This document shows positions 16,376 through 56,615 of a DNA stretch of 64,000 bases, one piece after another. Source of the stretch: Escherichia coli (lineage in GTDB: Bacteria; Pseudomonadota; Gammaproteobacteria; Enterobacterales; Enterobacteriaceae); assembly GCF_024298765.1 (NCBI RefSeq), contig NZ_CP101210.1. One strand, 5' to 3'. Made by a program: the position numbers and the translations under genes. Positions within the stretch are counted from its first letter, which is position 1. Each line of letters begins with the position of its first letter. The notes beneath the pieces are model-generated. The model was not told the origin of the DNA and made no database searches. It saw only the letters and a list, made by a program, of their open reading frames with translations.

Positions 16376-16468
16376 GGTGAGGTGGCCGAGAGGCTGAAGG
16401 CGCTCCCCTGCTAAGGGAGTATGCGGTCAAAAGCTGCATCCGGGGTTCGAATCCCCGCCTCACCGCCA
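16376..16468 (+). tRNA. serV: tRNA-Ser (anticodon GCU)
   Basis: 93-nt sequence GGTGAGGTGGCCGAGAGG...CCGCCTCACCGCCA with long variable arm; anticodon loop CT-GCT-AA. Confidence 0.92.
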
Positions 16469-16471
16469 TTT

Positions 16472-16548
16472 GCATCCGTAGCTCAGCTGGATAGAGTACT
16501 CGGCTACGAACCGAGCGGTCGGAGGTTCGAATCCTCCCGGATGCACCA
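16472..16548 (+). tRNA. argV: tRNA-Arg (anticodon ACG), copy 1
   Basis: 77-nt GCATCCGTAGCTCAGCTGGATAGAGTACTCGGCTACGAACCGAGCGGTCGGAGGTTCGAATCCTCCCGGATGCACCA. Confidence 0.93.
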
Positions 16549-16746
16549 TATTCTACGTACCTTCAGCGATGAAGGTATGGAAGAGGTGGCGGTAATAACC
16601 GCAGGCACCAGGGAGGATAACGTTGCTTTAGCAACGGCCCGAAGGGCGAGCCGCAAGGCGAGTAATCCTCCCGGATGCACCATCTCTTACTTGATAGGGC
16701 TTTAGTAGCGGTATCAAAAAATCTGCAGTAAAGTAAGTTTCCCGAT
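16549..16746 (+). repeat. tRNA-cluster spacer repeat ending in a duplicated tRNA-Arg 3' end
   Basis: Hairpins cttcagcgatgaag and gttgctttagcaac, then cctcccggatgcacca without a preceding tRNA body; near-identical copy at 17103-17236. Confidence 0.7.
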
Positions 16747-16823
16747 GCATCCGTAGCTCAGCTGGATAGAGTACTCGGCTACGAACCGAGCGGTCGGAGG
16801 TTCGAATCCTCCCGGATGCACCA
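16747..16823 (+). tRNA. argY: tRNA-Arg (anticodon ACG), copy 2
   Basis: Identical 77-nt tRNA-Arg sequence. Confidence 0.92.
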
Positions 16824-16885
16824 TCTCTTACTTGATATGGCTTTAGTAGCGGTATCAATATCAGCAGTAAAATAAATTTTCCGAT

Positions 16886-16962
16886 GCATCCGTAGCTCAG
16901 CTGGATAGAGTACTCGGCTACGAACCGAGCGGTCGGAGGTTCGAATCCTCCCGGATGCACCA
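16886..16962 (+). tRNA. argZ: tRNA-Arg (anticodon ACG), copy 3
   Basis: Identical 77-nt tRNA-Arg sequence. Confidence 0.92.
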
Positions 16963-17025
16963 TCTCTTACTTGATATGGCCTTAGTAGCGATATCAATAT
17001 CAGCAGTAAAATAAATTTTCCCGAT

Positions 17026-17102
17026 GCATCCGTAGCTCAGCTGGATAGAGTACTCGGCTACGAACCGAGCGGTCGGAGGTTCGAATCCTCCCGGATGCAC
17101 CA
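17026..17102 (+). tRNA. argQ: tRNA-Arg (anticodon ACG), copy 4
   Basis: Identical 77-nt tRNA-Arg sequence. Confidence 0.92.
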
Positions 17103-20013: not shown

Positions 20014-20086
20014 AAAAAGGCCACTCGTGAGTGGCCAAAATTTCATCTCTGAATTCAGGGATGATGATAACAAATGCGCGTCTTTC
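20014..20086 (-). ncRNA. micA: MicA (SraD) small regulatory RNA
   Basis: Reverse strand reads GAAAGACGCGCATTTGTTATCATCATCCCTGAATTCAGAGATGAAATTTTGGCCACTCACGAGTGGCCTTTTT with terminal hairpin; lies between gshA and luxS. Confidence 0.9.
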
Positions 20087-26579: not shown

Positions 26580-26687
26580 TATTTTTGTTCATCAGGTGAT
26601 GATTAAGCTGGAAATCAATAATAGCGGATGTTGATGAATATGGGATGAAAGATAGATTGTTGAAATGTGCGGTGTGGTTTGTAGGTA

Positions 26688-26760
26688 TGATAAGACGCAC
26701 CAGCGTCGCATCAGGCATTGTGTACAGAGCGGCGGATGAGGCAAAAACGCCTTATCCGCC
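26688..26760. repeat. REP/BIME palindromic elements
   Basis: tgataagacgcaccagcgtcgcatcaggc and ggcggatgaggcaaaaacgccttatccgcc between ygaY and proX. Confidence 0.7.
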
Positions 26761-26770
26761 CGAATAAAAA

Positions 26771-42173: not shown

Positions 42174-43622
42174 TTAAAGACCGATGCACATATATTTGAT
42201 TTCTAAGTAATCTTCGATGCCATACTTCGAACCTTCACGACCCAGACCCGAGGCTTTAATGCCGCCGAACGGGGCCACTTCATTGGAAATAATGCCAGTA
42301 TTAATGCCGACGATGCCGTACTCCAGCGCCTCGCCCACGCGGAAGACGCGGCTTAAATCACGGGCGTAGAAATAGGCGGCAAGGCCAAACTCGGTGTCAT
42401 TGGCCTGCGCAATCACATCGGCTTCATCTTTAAAGCGGAATAGCGGGGCAAGGGGGCCGAACGTCTCTTCTTTCGACACTTTGGCGTTGGCCGGAACGTC
42501 CACCAGAATGGTCGGCTGGAAGAAGTTGCCGCCGCGTTCATCCGCTTTACCGCCGCAAACCACACGCGCACCTTTCTCCAGCGCATCGGCAATATGCTCT
42601 TCCACTTTTGCTACCGCTTTTTCATCAATCAGCGGCCCAATGGTGACGCCATTCTCCAGCCCGTCGCCGATGTGCAGTTTGCTCACCGCCTGCTGCAATT
42701 TTTCGGCAAAGCGGTCATACACGCCGTCCTGCACGTATAAACGGTTGGCGCAGACGCAGGTTTGCCCGGCGTTGCGGAATTTCGAGGCCAGTGCGCCTTC
42801 CACGGCTTTGTCGAGGTCGGCATCGTCAAAGACGATAAACGGCGCGTTGCCGCCCAGTTCCAGCGACACTTTCTTGATGTCTTTCGCGCACTGTTCCATT
42901 AACTGGCGGCCAATTTCGGTCGAGCCGGTAAACGACAGTTTGCGCACCAGCGGGTTGCTGGTCAGTTCGTTACCGACCGCGCCCGCCGAACCGGTGACCA
43001 CGTTAAATACGCCAGCCGGAACGCCTGCGCGAATCGCCAGTTCCGCCAGCGCCAGCGCAGAGAACGGCGTCTGACTGGCAGGTTTCAGCACCATCGTGCA
43101 GCCTGCCGCCAGCGCCGGACCGGCTTTACGGGTAATCATCGCCGCCGGAAAGTTCCACGGCGTGATAGCAGCAGTGACGCCAATCGGCTGCTTGATAACA
43201 ATCAGGCGTTTATCGGCCTGATGACCGGGAATGGTGTCGCCATAAATACGTTTGCCTTCTTCAGCAAACCACTCAATAAAGGAGGCCGCGTAGCTGATTT
43301 CGCCTTTCGCTTCAGCCAGCGGTTTACCCTGTTCGAGGGTCATCAGGCGCGCTAAATCGTCCTGATGCTCCATCATCAAATTGAACCAGTTGCGCAGAAT
43401 GGTGGCGCGTTCTTTGGCGGTGAGCGCGCGCCAGGCGGGCAGAGCGCGGTTGGCGGCGTCGATAGCGGCGCGGGTTTCATCAGCGCCCATTTTCGGCACG
43501 CTACCCAGCTTGTCGCCGTTCGCCGGATTGGTGACGTCGATGACCTCGCCATTGTTGGCGTCCAGCCATTCCCCGTTAATCAACGCCTGCTGGCGGAATA
43601 AGTTACTGTCGTTAAGTTTCAT
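42174..43622 (-). CDS. gabD: Succinate-semialdehyde dehydrogenase GabD
   Basis: 482-aa ORF; aldehyde dehydrogenase family. Confidence 0.95.
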   Translation of the reverse strand: MKLNDSNLFRQQALINGEWLDANNGEVIDVTNPANGDKLGSVPKMGADETRAAIDAANRALPAWRALTAKERATILRNWFNLMMEHQDDLARLMTLEQGKPLAEAKGEISYAASFIEWFAEEGKRIYGDTIPGHQADKRLIVIKQPIGVTAAITPWNFPAAMITRKAGPALAAGCTMVLKPASQTPFSALALAELAIRAGVPAGVFNVVTGSAGAVGNELTSNPLVRKLSFTGSTEIGRQLMEQCAKDIKKVSLELGGNAPFIVFDDADLDKAVEGALASKFRNAGQTCVCANRLYVQDGVYDRFAEKLQQAVSKLHIGDGLENGVTIGPLIDEKAVAKVEEHIADALEKGARVVCGGKADERGGNFFQPTILVDVPANAKVSKEETFGPLAPLFRFKDEADVIAQANDTEFGLAAYFYARDLSRVFRVGEALEYGIVGINTGIISNEVAPFGGIKASGLGREGSKYGIEDYLEIKYMCIGL

Positions 43623-43644
43623 TGTTACGTCCTGTTTTCAAAGG

Positions 43645-44913
43645 TTATTGATTAAATGCGGCGTGTAAGGCATCCACACTACGTGCCGCTCGCAGCGTGC
43701 GTCCGGGGTTACTCTGGCTTGCCAACAGCGTTTGTACCTTGCTGACAATATGCGCACCAATAGGAATTGCTGATGTCGCTGCCGGGGAGGGCGCATTGCA
43801 GGTGTGGATCGTGCGCGGGGTGGTGACAAACAGAAAATCGTCAATCAGCTTGCCGTCCGGCGATACCGCCTGCGCCCGCACACCAGCGGGCCAGGGCTGG
43901 AGATCGCTTAACGAAAGCCGGGGACAATACTTTTGCACCAGCCGCAGATAGCCGCTTTTGCACAGCGAGTTTTTCATCTCGCCCAGTCCTGAGCGTAGAT
44001 GGTTTTGCAGCACCCGGCGAATCCCCGACGAGCCCAAAATCTCCAGCGTGTCGCTAAATGAGAAGTCGCGCTTACGATAGCCTTCGCGTTTGAAAGCCAG
44101 CACCGCGTTTGGCCCGACGGTCACGCTGCCATCGATCATGCGGGTGAGATGCACGCCCAAAAATGGCATCGCGGGGTCGGGAATGGGGTAAATCAGGTGG
44201 TTAACAATCTGGTTATGCTCCGGCGCAAGGCGGAAATACTCGCCACGGAACGGGCAGATAATAAAGCCCGGTTCGAGGCCGAGCATTTTCACCAGCCGGT
44301 CAGCCATCAGCCCGGAACAGCTAATCAGCGTCGATGCTTCATATTCACCGCCCTGACGGGTACGTATCACCACGCCGTTTTTATGCTCACTGAGGGCGCT
44401 GACTTCGGCGTTATAAATAATCTCGCCGCCTCTGGCCTGGAAGATTTTTGCCATCGCCGCCGTCACTTCGCGATAGCTGACAATGCCGCTGGACGGCACA
44501 AAAATGCCGCCGAGCCCGGTGATATTCGGTTCGCGCTCGCGCAGTTCCTCGGCGTTTAGCCACTCGCGCTCGATACCATTCGCCGCCGTACGTTCCCACA
44601 ACGCGCGCATCCGTTCCATTTCGAGTTCAGAGGTGGCGACCAGCATCTTGCCGCAGTTGTCATAGCGAATGCCGTTTTGATCGCAAAAGGCTTTGGTGGC
44701 GCGGTTCCCCGCCAGGCAAAACTGCGCCTTCAGGCTACCGGGCGTGTAATAAACCCCGGCATGGATCACGCCGCTGTTGTGGCCTGTCTGATGACAGGCC
44801 GGACCGGACTCTTTTTCCAGCAACGCAATGCGGGCATCCGGATAAACATCAATCAGTTGCATGGCGGTCGACATGCCGATGATGCCGCCGCCAATAATCA
44901 CAAAATCATACAT
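43645..44913 (-). CDS. lhgO: L-2-hydroxyglutarate oxidase LhgO (YgaF)
   Basis: 422 aa from MYDFVIIGGGIIG (FAD motif); synteny csiD-lhgO-gabDTP. Confidence 0.9.
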   Translation of the reverse strand: MYDFVIIGGGIIGMSTAMQLIDVYPDARIALLEKESGPACHQTGHNSGVIHAGVYYTPGSLKAQFCLAGNRATKAFCDQNGIRYDNCGKMLVATSELEMERMRALWERTAANGIEREWLNAEELREREPNITGLGGIFVPSSGIVSYREVTAAMAKIFQARGGEIIYNAEVSALSEHKNGVVIRTRQGGEYEASTLISCSGLMADRLVKMLGLEPGFIICPFRGEYFRLAPEHNQIVNHLIYPIPDPAMPFLGVHLTRMIDGSVTVGPNAVLAFKREGYRKRDFSFSDTLEILGSSGIRRVLQNHLRSGLGEMKNSLCKSGYLRLVQKYCPRLSLSDLQPWPAGVRAQAVSPDGKLIDDFLFVTTPRTIHTCNAPSPAATSAIPIGAHIVSKVQTLLASQSNPGRTLRAARSVDALHAAFNQ

Positions 44914-53945: not shown

Positions 53946-54530
53946 GTGGGTAAAGAACCTGAATGGAAAGTTGATAAACAACCAGCATGGCTGGTGGCAG
54001 CAATACGAAGAACGATTGCTGATTTACCTCATGGCTATGAGGAAGCAGCAGAAATTCTTGGTTTGTATAAATCTGATGATATCACCCCAGCAAAAGATCA
54101 ATTGCATAACAGACTGCGTAGCGGTGGGGATCAAATTTTTCCACTTGAGTGGGCCATGGTTTTACAGGATGCCAGTGGTACCAGGCATGTAACAGATGCA
54201 ATAGCCCGTCGTAGTAATGGGGTGTTTGTGCCGCTGGTGGTCATTGATGACATTGACAATGGTGACATTAATCAGCGGCTGATGGAGTCAATAGAATGGA
54301 TTGGCAAGCATTCCCAGTACTTACGCAAGGCAACTGCTGATGGAGTTATTGACCAAGCTGAGCGTGAGCAAATCGAAGAGAACAGCTACCAAGTAATGGC
54401 GAAGTGGCAGGAGCATTTAACACTGTTATTTCGTGTTTTTTGTGCGCCGGAAAAGAGTAACGCCCGCGAGTGTGCAGCTCCGGGCGTCGTGGCGTCGATT
54501 GCTTCTGGTTGTGGAGAAACTAACGCATGA
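53946..54530 (+). CDS. Phage regulatory protein, CII-like (tentative)
   Basis: 194-aa ORF directly after cro in the cII position; family assignment from position and vague similarity only. Confidence 0.45.
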
Positions 54531-54865
54531 ACAGTTTAACAACACACTACCGTCGTTCGCAACTGATTGCGCTTCCTGTACCGGGTGGAAAAGCGAAGGT
54601 GGAGTATTGCTATGCAGTGAATGTACCAGGTGATAGGGAAATTGTAACCCACAGCTTTGCAGAGTGGGCTGTGGGTGATTTCAACCGGCAGAAGGAGACA
54701 GTCCTTTGCGACAAGTTAACCGCTGGTTCAAAGATCACTACGGAGTGCCCGTCAGAGTCATTCGTTGGGAGCCGGAAACACAACGGGTTATCTACCTCCG
54801 TGAAGGCTATGAACATGAATGCTTCAGTCCGCTCGAACAGTTTCGTCGTAAATTCAGGGAAATAG
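54527..54865 (+). CDS. Hypothetical phage protein (C-terminal part doubtful)
   Basis: 112-aa ORF starting at the ATGA overlap with the upstream stop; the last ~50 aa are low-complexity and overlap ORF 54706-54918 out of frame. Confidence 0.35.
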
Positions 54866-54918
54866 AGGTCGGTCATGAGCCTGTTAATGACATCCCAGCC
54901 CATTGTGATAAATCGTGA
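54706..54918 (+). CDS. Hypothetical phage protein (TTG start)
   Basis: 70-aa ORF with strong SD gaaggaga about 7 nt upstream of TTG; protein-like composition; overlaps the O-like gene start. Confidence 0.45.
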
Positions 54919-55867
54919 TCTTGCATGCCGTATTGGTCTGAATGAGGCAATTGTGTTGCAGCAGCTTCATTACTGGCTGAATGAAACGAATTCAGGCACT
55001 GAGCATGGCGGAATTCGCTGGGTTTATAACACGACAGAACAGTGGCTGGAGCAGTTTCCGTTCTGGTCAGAGTCCACTCTGAAACGCACATTTGCAAGCC
55101 TGAAATCACTTGGGGTTTTGCGTCGCGAGCAACTCAATAAATCGAAGCGTGACATGACCAACTTCTACACGATCAACTATGAAAGTGAGCTTTTAGAAGA
55201 GGTCAAAGTGAACGAATCCATCAGGTCAAAATGCACTTCTCCATCGGGTCAAAGTGACCTGATGGATGAGCGCAAAATGACACGATCCATTGGTTCAAAA
55301 CGACACGCTGTCATCGGGTCAAAATGGCCCAATGATCTTACAGAGAATACAACAGAGATTACTACAGAGAATAAAACCTCTTCTCGTCCGGACGCTTCGC
55401 AACCGGACACGCAGATGGCTGAACAGGATTTTTTAACTCGCCATCCTGATGCGGTTGTATTCAGCCCTAAAAAGCGCCAGTGGGGAACGCAGGATGATTT
55501 GACCTGCGCACAGTGGCTCTGGAAAAAAATCATCGCTCTGTACGAGCAGGCCGCCGAATGTGACGGCGAAGTGGTACGTCCTAAAGAACCGAACTGGACA
55601 GCCTGGGCAAACGAAATTCGCCTGATGTGTGTACAGGATGGGCGTACTCACAAACAAATCTGCGAGATGTACAGCCGCGTCAGCCGCGATCCGTTCTGGT
55701 GCCGTAACGTGCTCAGCCCGTCGAAGCTGCGGGAAAAATGGGATGAGCTTTCCCTGCGCTTATCGCCGTCCGTCAGCACGTACACAGAAAAACGCGAAGA
55801 TCCGTACTTCAAAGCCAGTTACGACAACGTGGACTACAGCCAGATCCCGGCAGGATTCAGGGGGTGA
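54875..55867 (+). CDS. Replication initiation protein, lambda O-like, with internal iterons
   Basis: 330-aa ORF; N-terminal O-like domain; four to five direct DNA repeats of the ggtcaaaatg type at ~55196-55330. Confidence 0.8.
   Translation: MSLLMTSQPIVINRDLACRIGLNEAIVLQQLHYWLNETNSGTEHGGIRWVYNTTEQWLEQFPFWSESTLKRTFASLKSLGVLRREQLNKSKRDMTNFYTINYESELLEEVKVNESIRSKCTSPSGQSDLMDERKMTRSIGSKRHAVIGSKWPNDLTENTTEITTENKTSSRPDASQPDTQMAEQDFLTRHPDAVVFSPKKRQWGTQDDLTCAQWLWKKIIALYEQAAECDGEVVRPKEPNWTAWANEIRLMCVQDGRTHKQICEMYSRVSRDPFWCRNVLSPSKLREKWDELSLRLSPSVSTYTEKREDPYFKASYDNVDYSQIPAGFRG
55196..55330. repeat. Origin iterons inside the O-like gene
   Basis: Direct repeats gaggtcaaagtg, caggtcaaaatg, cgggtcaaagtg, tggttcaaaacg, cgggtcaaaatg spaced ~20-25 bp. 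Confidence 0.7.
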
Positions 55868-55869
55868 TC

Positions 55870-55962
55870 ATGAGTCTTTTGAATGAAGTTCAGAAATTCA
55901 TTGAAGCCCATCCGGGGTGTACTTCCGGAGACATTGCGGATGCTTTTTACGTGGGGGCTTAA
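55870..55962 (+). CDS. Small ORF (30 aa) translationally coupled between the O-like gene and the methyltransferase
   Basis: ATG at 55870 preceded by SD aggggg; stop overlaps the methyltransferase ATG (TAATG). Confidence 0.3.
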   Translation: MSLLNEVQKFIEAHPGCTSGDIADAFYVGA

Positions 55963-56615
55963 TGAGTAATAAATATTGTCAGGCGCTGGTGGAGCTGCGG
56001 AACAAACCATCCCATGAACTGAAGGAGGTGGGCGATCAGTGGCGCACGCCGGACAGCATTTTCTGGGGAATTAACACCTTGTTTGGCCCGTTTGTTCTGG
56101 ATCTGTTCACTGACGGTGATAACGCCAAATGTGCCGCGTATTACACGGCGGAAGACAACGCGCTGGCGCATGACTGGTCAGAACGCCTTGCGGAGCTTAA
56201 AGGTGCTGCCTTTGGCAATCCCCCATACAGTCGCGCCAGTCAGCATGAGGGGCAATACATCACCGGCATGCGTTACATCATGAAACATGCCAGTGCCATG
56301 CGTGATAAGGGCGGGCGCTATGTTTTCCTGATCAAAGCTGCCACCAGCGAAGTGTGGTGGCCGGAAGATGCGGACCATATTGCTTTTATTCGCGGGCGTA
56401 TTGGTTTTGAACTGCCTGCCTGGTTTATCCCGAAAGATGAGAAGCAGGTGCCGATAGGCGCTTTCTTCGCTGGTGCTATTGCTGTTTTTGACAAGACCTG
56501 GAAGGGACCGGCAATCAGCTACATCGGGCGCGATGAACTTGAGGCATGTGGTGAGGCCTTTCTGGCGCAGGTTCGCCAGCAGGCAGAAAAACTGGTCAGG
56601 GAGATGGTGGCATGA
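55962..56615 (+). CDS. Phage DNA N6-adenine methyltransferase (Dam-like)
   Basis: About 218 aa from MSNKYCQALVEL; motif IV FGNPPYS. Confidence 0.85.
   Translation: MSNKYCQALVELRNKPSHELKEVGDQWRTPDSIFWGINTLFGPFVLDLFTDGDNAKCAAYYTAEDNALAHDWSERLAELKGAAFGNPPYSRASQHEGQYITGMRYIMKHASAMRDKGGRYVFLIKAATSEVWWPEDADHIAFIRGRIGFELPAWFIPKDEKQVPIGAFFAGAIAVFDKTWKGPAISYIGRDELEACGEAFLAQVRQQAEKLVREMVA

Follow-up and report, generated by a model that had tools for sequence, protein, structure and literature searches.

The prophage locus

The feature described here lies in a prophage of Escherichia coli, within a stretch of 64,000 nucleotides of contig NZ_CP101210.1 that was analysed as a whole (the window; all positions refer to it). 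Prophage homology starts near 50.6 kb, and genes for a cI-like repressor, Cro and a CII-like regulator are the upstream neighbours of a gene for an O-like replication initiator. Within this gene, between the parts that encode its two folded domains, six direct repeats of 23 bp (iterons) are followed by an AT-rich segment with three repeats of 12 bp. The features are as follows.

54875–55867, + strand: gene for the O-like replication initiator, 330 aa (open reading frame; PHROG 391)
54875–55198, + strand: N-terminal winged-helix domain, aa 1–108, presumed to bind the iterons (AF2 model, Foldseek)
55196–55218, + strand: iteron 1 (weak), GAAGAGGTCAAAGTGAACGAATC
55219–55241, + strand: iteron 2, CATCAGGTCAAAATGCACTTCTC
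55242–55264, + strand: iteron 3, with an internal dyad, CATCGGGTCAAAGTGACCTGATG, 18/23 self-complementary
55265–55287, + strand: iteron 4, degenerate here (GATGAGCGCAAAATGACACGATC), GGTCAAAATG in relatives
55288–55310, + strand: iteron 5, CATTGGTTCAAAACGACACGCTG
55312–55334, + strand: iteron 6, with an internal dyad, CATCGGGTCAAAATGGCCCAATG, 16/23 self-complementary
55335–55380, + strand: AT-rich segment with three 12-bp repeats (TACAGAGAnTAC), presumed DNA-unwinding element (GC content, Tandem Repeats Finder, conservation)
55378–55390, + strand: mosaic junction, end of the module of N-domain and putative origin (identity switch against SfII and SfIV)
55481–55756, + strand: C-terminal helical domain, homologous to the C-domain of lambda O (BLASTP, AF2)
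55838–55864, + strand: C-terminal tail SQIPAGFRG, a near match to the end of E. coli DnaT (SQIPPGFRG)

Public annotations differ in the start of the initiator gene, which is placed at 54875 or at 54887. The first 44 nt of the initiator reading frame are shared with a DUF4222 gene (54706–54918; E 1.5e-18), which is itself overlapped, in another frame, by a reading frame of 112 aa (54527–54865). A scan of 54400–56100 for sigma-70 promoters found no promoter, and the terminator-like matches in the same interval are weak and on the opposite strand.

Downstream of the initiator gene follow a PerC-like remnant of 30 aa, a Dam methylase recognised by Pfam, and reading frames that correspond in position to RusA, KilA-N and antiterminator Q when set against the annotations of close relatives. 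The remnant (55870–55962, MSLLNEVQKFIEAHPGCTSGDIADAFYVGA) derives from a gene for a PerC-like activator of 162–164 aa, which mEp460_4F5, SfII, SfV and many IMG/VR relatives have in intact form; a small LexA-like gene that lies between dam and rusA in those phages is missing here. Together these two observations suggest deletions in the present prophage, and given the truncated neighbour gene it may be partly decayed. The dam gene (55962–56615) places a prophage-encoded Dam methylase 600 bp downstream of the candidate origin cassette, which carries two GATC sites (55284–55287 and 55334–55337), the second of them variable and reading GATCC or GTTCT in some relatives. The part of the window that belongs to the host chromosome holds a cluster of one tRNA-Ser and four tRNA-Arg(ACG) genes (16376–17102), the sRNA MicA (20015–20086) and a match to naRNA4 just above threshold (26684–26761).

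The initiator protein

The initiator matches PHROG 391 ('replication initiation O-like') over its full length (E 8e-102) and is 99.4% identical to the 'Primosomal protein I' of phage mEp460_4F5. Scans against Pfam and NCBIfam assigned it to no family, and Phage_rep_O (PF04492) gave no match even at E ≤ 10, with lambda O as a positive control at 5.7e-36. Sequence searches of the PDB, with the whole initiator and with its tail as queries, returned no matches.

The AF2 model of the N-terminal domain (pLDDT 85.8) has the topology H-H-E-E-H-H-E-E of a winged helix, and Foldseek searches with this model returned winged-helix DNA binders. The top TM scores (0.55–0.63) were to the N-domains of staphylococcal plasmid RepA proteins and to a Rep-DNA complex (4pql, 5kbj and 4pt7), at weak E values of 0.02–0.08. 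RepA_N-type staphylococcal plasmids carry their origin inside repA, and the winged-helix N-domains of their initiators bind iterons, as is presumed for the N-domain modelled here; they differ from the present initiator in that there is no match between sequence families, and we read the likeness of the modelled domain as a weak resemblance at the level of the fold and not as demonstrated homology. By sequence, the N-domain is approximately 50% identical to the N-domains of initiators from Staphylococcus, Bacillus and Listeria phages. Most proteins recovered in a homolog search with the 110-aa N-domain were short or partial; they served for an alignment and were of no use for context.

The C-terminal half is related to lambda O (aa 147–294, 34% identity over 148 aa by BLASTP, E 2e-27), and in the full-length AF2 model aa 183–295 are well folded. 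Between the two folded domains of this model, aa 109–178 (nt 55199–55408) have pLDDT values of 26–43 and lack secondary structure, and they are predicted to form a disordered linker. The iterons and the 12-bp repeats would therefore sit where the protein product is least constrained.

An array of six iterons

The preliminary description of this DNA had reported four to five regularly spaced repeats of the ggtcaaaatg type inside the O-like reading frame. The location and the regular spacing hold, and the number has to be raised to six: laid out by hand, 55196–55334 consists of six head-to-tail units of 23 bp that start at 55196, 55219, 55242, 55265, 55288 and 55312 (spacing 23, 23, 23, 23 and 24), at offsets 321–459 of the 993-nt gene and thus between the N- and the C-domain. 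Repeat detection, which had been proposed as a check, recovers the same array independently of the layout by hand, both in a repeat search that found copies at 23-bp steps and with Tandem Repeats Finder (period 23, 5.4 copies, 55201–55326). The consensus of the six units is CATCAGGTCAAAATGACCCGATC, with RGGTCAAARTG as their core, and each unit agrees with it at 16–19 of the 23 positions. Four units are strong (55219, 55242, 55288 and 55312) and two are weaker (55196 and 55265). Internal dyad symmetry is found in units 3 and 6 (18/23 and 16/23 positions), against 10–12/23 in the other four, and as only these two show a dyad, the stoichiometry of initiator binding to the iterons may differ from that in lambda.

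A 17-mer consensus with at most three mismatches matches four times in the 64-kb window against 0.23 matches expected, and none of 100 shuffles reached four. All four matches lie on one strand inside a 110-bp stretch of the array, and the window holds no further iteron copies by this measure outside the array. The 10-mer GGTCAAAATG by itself, with one mismatch, shows no excess over the window (8 matches against 6 expected), and four of its eight matches are inside the array. DnaA boxes (TTWTNCACA) are absent in and near the putative origin, and their window-wide counts are at chance.

An adjoining AT-rich segment with 12-bp repeats

Directly 3′ of the iteron array lie three 12-bp repeats, TACAGAGAATAC, AACAGAGATTAC and TACAGAGAATAA (55339–55377), for which Tandem Repeats Finder gives a period of 12 and 3.2 copies. 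The GC content reaches its minimum for the interval 54500–56200 here (0.35 at 55320–55379, against approximately 0.50 for the whole gene). The preliminary description had not included these repeats, and when the motifs themselves (TACAGAGAATAC, GGTCAAAATG and others) were searched for in the literature, only unrelated primers and no account of the 12-mer came up.

Constraint on the DNA and not on the peptide

Since 23 is not a multiple of 3, the six units fall in different reading frames (0, 2, 1, 0, 2 and 2). The peptides SIRSK, SIGSK and VIGSK, in which the array was earlier thought to be mirrored, are indeed present, but they are encoded only by the three units that share a frame and are a by-product of that frame, with no parallel signal in the protein; the remaining units encode EEVKVN, PSGQSD and DERKMT. 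The rotation of the units through the three frames, here and in every relative examined, argues that the repeat exists at the level of the DNA and not of the protein.

Variability was measured by codon position, as column entropy in bits, in an alignment of 73 distinct relatives (80 IMG/VR loci and phage records).

Region: codon position 1 / 2 / 3
N-domain: 0.16 / 0.10 / 0.75
Iteron cores: 0.12 / 0.23 / 0.28
12-mers: 0.18 / 0.48 / 0.14

The N-domain has the usual pattern of a coding sequence, which neither the iteron cores nor the 12-mers show. At third codon positions, variability in the cores is lower than in the N-domain by a factor of 2.7, and the drop from 0.75 bits to 0.28 in the cores and to 0.14 (0.137) in the 12-mers leads us to conclude that the constraint acts on the DNA. 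Compared with the group of HannyBb, PhiR42_1 and mEp460_ev081, identity is 82% in the iterons and 96% in the 12-mer region, against 74% in the N-domain and 64% in the C-domain, and hundreds of relatives have kept the array. Both the fall in third-position entropy and the 82% identity of the iterons thus speak for repeats that are conserved, a point on which the preliminary description had made its reading depend.

Modularity and spread

Phages SfII and SfIV have another N-half (an HTH_36 domain) and, at the equivalent place, other repeats with a period of 15 bp (GTCAAAATCTGACCC). From gene nt 491–497 on (approximately 55365–55385), the present gene shares 97% identity with SfII, SfIV and many others, and this junction coincides exactly with the end of the 12-mer segment. 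Lambda, too, combines a different N-domain with different repeats. The N-domain, the iterons and the AT-rich element therefore form one exchangeable unit. That the N-domain and the repeats travel together is what would be expected if this domain recognises the repeats.

With the N-domain as query, tblastn found relatives in 115 phage records that range from phages of Enterobacteria to those of Staphylococcus, Bacillus, Listeria and Bacteroides, and the architecture was compared in fourteen phage relatives, two close E. coli phages among them. Three to six GRnCAAAATG units at 22–23-bp steps are present in phages of Klebsiella and Pantoea, in Pseudomonas phage 8P, SopranoGao, Staphylococcus phage IPLA88 and Bacillus phage TP21-L and in Listeria phages; in each phage with such an array the frames of the units rotate, and MCAGAGAnTAC repeats come next. 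The Geobacillus and Pseudomonas AF phages have the MCAGAGAnTAC motif and no clear iteron array, Lactobacillus phage mv4 has it after repeats of a different sequence, and it is absent from the more distant Stenotrophomonas and Vibrio relatives. The Glu codon in the motif is always GAG, despite a preference for GAA in the same genes of 17:3 (Staphylococcus) and 17:7 (Bacillus), and TP21-L and mv4 each have one motif copy in another frame. The DNA motif is thus kept across phyla, in phages of Proteobacteria and of Firmicutes, while the encoded peptide changes. The 12-mer next to the iterons is retained from E. coli to phages of Staphylococcus, Bacillus and Lactobacillus, and this conservation makes it more specific than a generic AT-rich tract.

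Within E. coli, the 271-bp putative origin region was found, at a coverage of at least 80%, in 1771 of 5426 complete genomes; the matched places number 4064, and ten of them are on plasmid records. The same region, at 99.6%, stands at the end (43442–43671) of NZ_CP081794.1, a 43.7-kb E. coli CT01 record that is classed as a plasmid and that could be either a phage-plasmid or a phage genome in circular form.

No loader gene and a DnaT-like tail

At the locus, no P-, DnaC- or DnaB-like gene was found downstream of the initiator gene, and the 78 related complete IMG/VR loci have no helicase or loader gene after it. This agrees with a recent survey (Genome Res 2025, PMC12315714), where O-only replication modules are counted in 34 of 314 lambdoid phages, phage LLS included, LLS is set beside mEp460_4F5, and the replication of O-only phages is said to be 'not yet understood'. 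As in the module of LLS described there, the present locus has a single O homolog without a helicase or loader, and phage mEp460_4F5 carries the present gene at 99.4% identity; the locus differs from these modules as the survey presents them in that the accessible text names no origin, iterons or C-terminal motif.

The last residues of the initiator, SQIPAGFRG, are identical to residues 171–179 of E. coli DnaT in eight of nine positions, and the HannyBb tail reads SEPDTEIPPGFRG against SEPDSQIPPGFRG in DnaT. The likeness ends there: BLASTP aligns the last nine residues only (pairwise E 0.008), and neither BLASTP nor the PDB sequence searches found homology to DnaT beyond the tail. The pattern [IV]PxGFR[GS] stands at the C-terminal end of most of the 78 complete IMG/VR relatives (73 in its strict form, with a few variants). 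It occurs on three combinations of N- and C-domains (two types of each), all without a loader gene, whereas neither lambda O nor the relatives with a primase-helicase, P/loader or DnaB gene after the initiator have it. The DnaT-like tail is likely the source of the 'Primosomal protein I' annotations, and these observations suggest that it may link the origin complex to the DnaT-dependent helicase-loading route of the host. DnaT that lacks residues 154–179 shows weaker cooperative binding to ssDNA (PMC4132743), and this effect is the only role of the C-terminal peptide found in the structural papers on DnaT that were consulted; a preprimosome paper of 2026 makes no residue-level statement on the DnaT tail in its text.

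The C-termini of relatives from phages of Gram-positive hosts read ...DIVLPF in Bacillus phage TP21-L gp32 (1192–2007) and ...DDDLPF in Lactobacillus phage mv4 ORF292 (1192–2067). The acidic C-terminal tip of bacterial SSB is DDDIPF, which these ends resemble, and they may be another kind of host-mimicking tail.

Comparison with known lambdoid origins

In lambda (NC_001416), four annotated iterons lie at approximately 348–433 of the 900-nt O gene with a spacing of 20, 24 and 23, and an AT-rich tract is next to them. A comparison with the lambda origin had been named as a further check, and the layout found here matches the annotated ori. In both, the origin or candidate origin lies midway along the initiator gene, flanked by the parts for a DNA-binding N-domain and for a C-domain that is homologous in the two proteins; the direct repeats are approximately 20–24 bp apart with a central A-tract and share TCAAAAYG; the AT-rich region is on the downstream (C-terminal) side of the iterons; and the initiator gene comes just after cro and a cII-like gene. 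The two differ in that there are six 23-bp units here and four of 18–19 bp in lambda, that clear palindromes are found in only two units whereas lambda iterons typically have a dyad, in keeping with binding of an O dimer, that the N-domain is outside the Phage_rep_O family, that the AT-rich part is a specific, widely conserved 12-mer repeat, and that no P gene is present.

According to the literature (PMC7466680), a lambdoid origin generally lies midway along O and combines an AT-rich tract with iterons, of which lambda has four and Stx phages have six. The Stx phages 933W and P27 are like the present locus in their six iterons, the distal ones of which are weaker, and in the placement of the origin in O (PMC7466680), but they have O and P proteins and iteron sequences of the lambda type.

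Alternative explanations

Could the repeats be something other than an origin? A chance likeness of short A-rich words, as the lack of a window-wide excess of the 10-mer GGTCAAAATG might be taken to indicate, is refuted by the statistics of the array and by its conservation, since half of those eight matches follow each other at exact 23-bp steps on a single strand within 125 bp, the 17-mer occurs four times where 0.23 matches are expected and in none of 100 shuffles as often, and the array recurs in hundreds of relatives; we give this explanation practically no weight. It is also very unlikely that the repeat belongs to the protein, as a low-complexity linker with S-I-G/R-S-K peptides that has no function as DNA. 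Three of the units do encode similar peptides, in a region predicted to be disordered, but the six units are spread over three frames, half of them encode unrelated peptides, codon periodicity is lost in cores whose third positions vary less than those of the N-domain, and across phyla it is the DNA motif that persists and the peptide that changes. Just as little probability attaches to an action of the partly palindromic units through mRNA structure or ssDNA hairpins. Folded as RNA, the single sequence 55190–55390 has a low minimum free energy (−67.4 kcal/mol, z = −6.1 against shuffles). In the other 61 distinct relatives, however, only 75% of the pair cells are kept, many pairs are broken in more than 80% of the sequences, and the consensus is a weak fold of −11 kcal/mol that keeps only the invariant dyad of unit 3, without compensatory changes. 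Rfam is blank in the prophage part of the window. The low fold energy can be ascribed to the presence of repeated, partly palindromic sites that are predicted to bind protein.

A further alternative, which we consider improbable, accepts that the repeats bind the initiator and takes them as control sites, for autoregulation, copy control or exclusion by titration, with replication starting elsewhere or by recombination. Plasmid iterons also serve copy control, and the locus has no gene for a helicase loader. The 2025 survey (PMC12315714) treats recombination-dependent growth in the O-only phage LLS and its relatives and calls the replication of these phages not understood. Against a control site, the array is tightly coupled to conserved AT-rich repeats, both are inherited with the N-domain as an origin would be, and the 64-kb window contains no further iteron copies.

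Proposed function and significance

We consider it very probable that the iterons and the presumed unwinding element together form a lambda-like replication origin of a lambdoid prophage inside its own initiator gene. The lambda-like arrangement put forward in the preliminary description is supported by the position and spacing of the repeats, the AT-rich flank, the O-homologous C-half and the conservation at the level of the DNA, and the domain layout and the modular inheritance of the N-domain with the cassette are observed alongside these. By analogy with lambda, the winged-helix N-domain of the 330-aa O-like protein would bind the six iterons on its own coding DNA, and with several initiator molecules in place on the array the DNA would become bent or wrapped, as in the 'O-some' of lambda. 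The resulting strain would open the adjoining AT-rich 12-mer segment (55335–55380), after which the host helicase would be recruited through the lambda-O-like C-domain together with the C-terminal tail. All of the cassette lies in the part of the gene that encodes the predicted disordered linker, where the protein could tolerate almost any sequence.

That an origin can lie inside the initiator gene is textbook knowledge from lambda, and in this respect the arrangement is ordinary. The variant described here, with a different DNA-binding domain, a conserved 12-mer and no phage-encoded loader, is common. More tentatively, and as a possibility that we hold to be doubtful rather than likely, these elements could define a distinct type of origin across phyla, consisting of a winged-helix N-domain, 23-bp iterons and a MCAGAGAnTAC unwinding element, which in the O-only phages of enterobacteria is free of a loader and uses an (S/T)xIPxGFRG tail to plug into the DnaT/PriA-DnaC-DnaB loading of the host.

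For the O-only type of module, which the 2025 survey counts in 34 of 314 lambdoid phages, the present analysis pins a likely origin to the base. The occurrence of the cassette with its specific 12-mer in phages of both Gram-negative and Gram-positive hosts points to a conserved opening mechanism tied to the N-domain, and the DnaT-like tail offers a testable idea of how a phage without a loader of its own may have the helicase of its host loaded.
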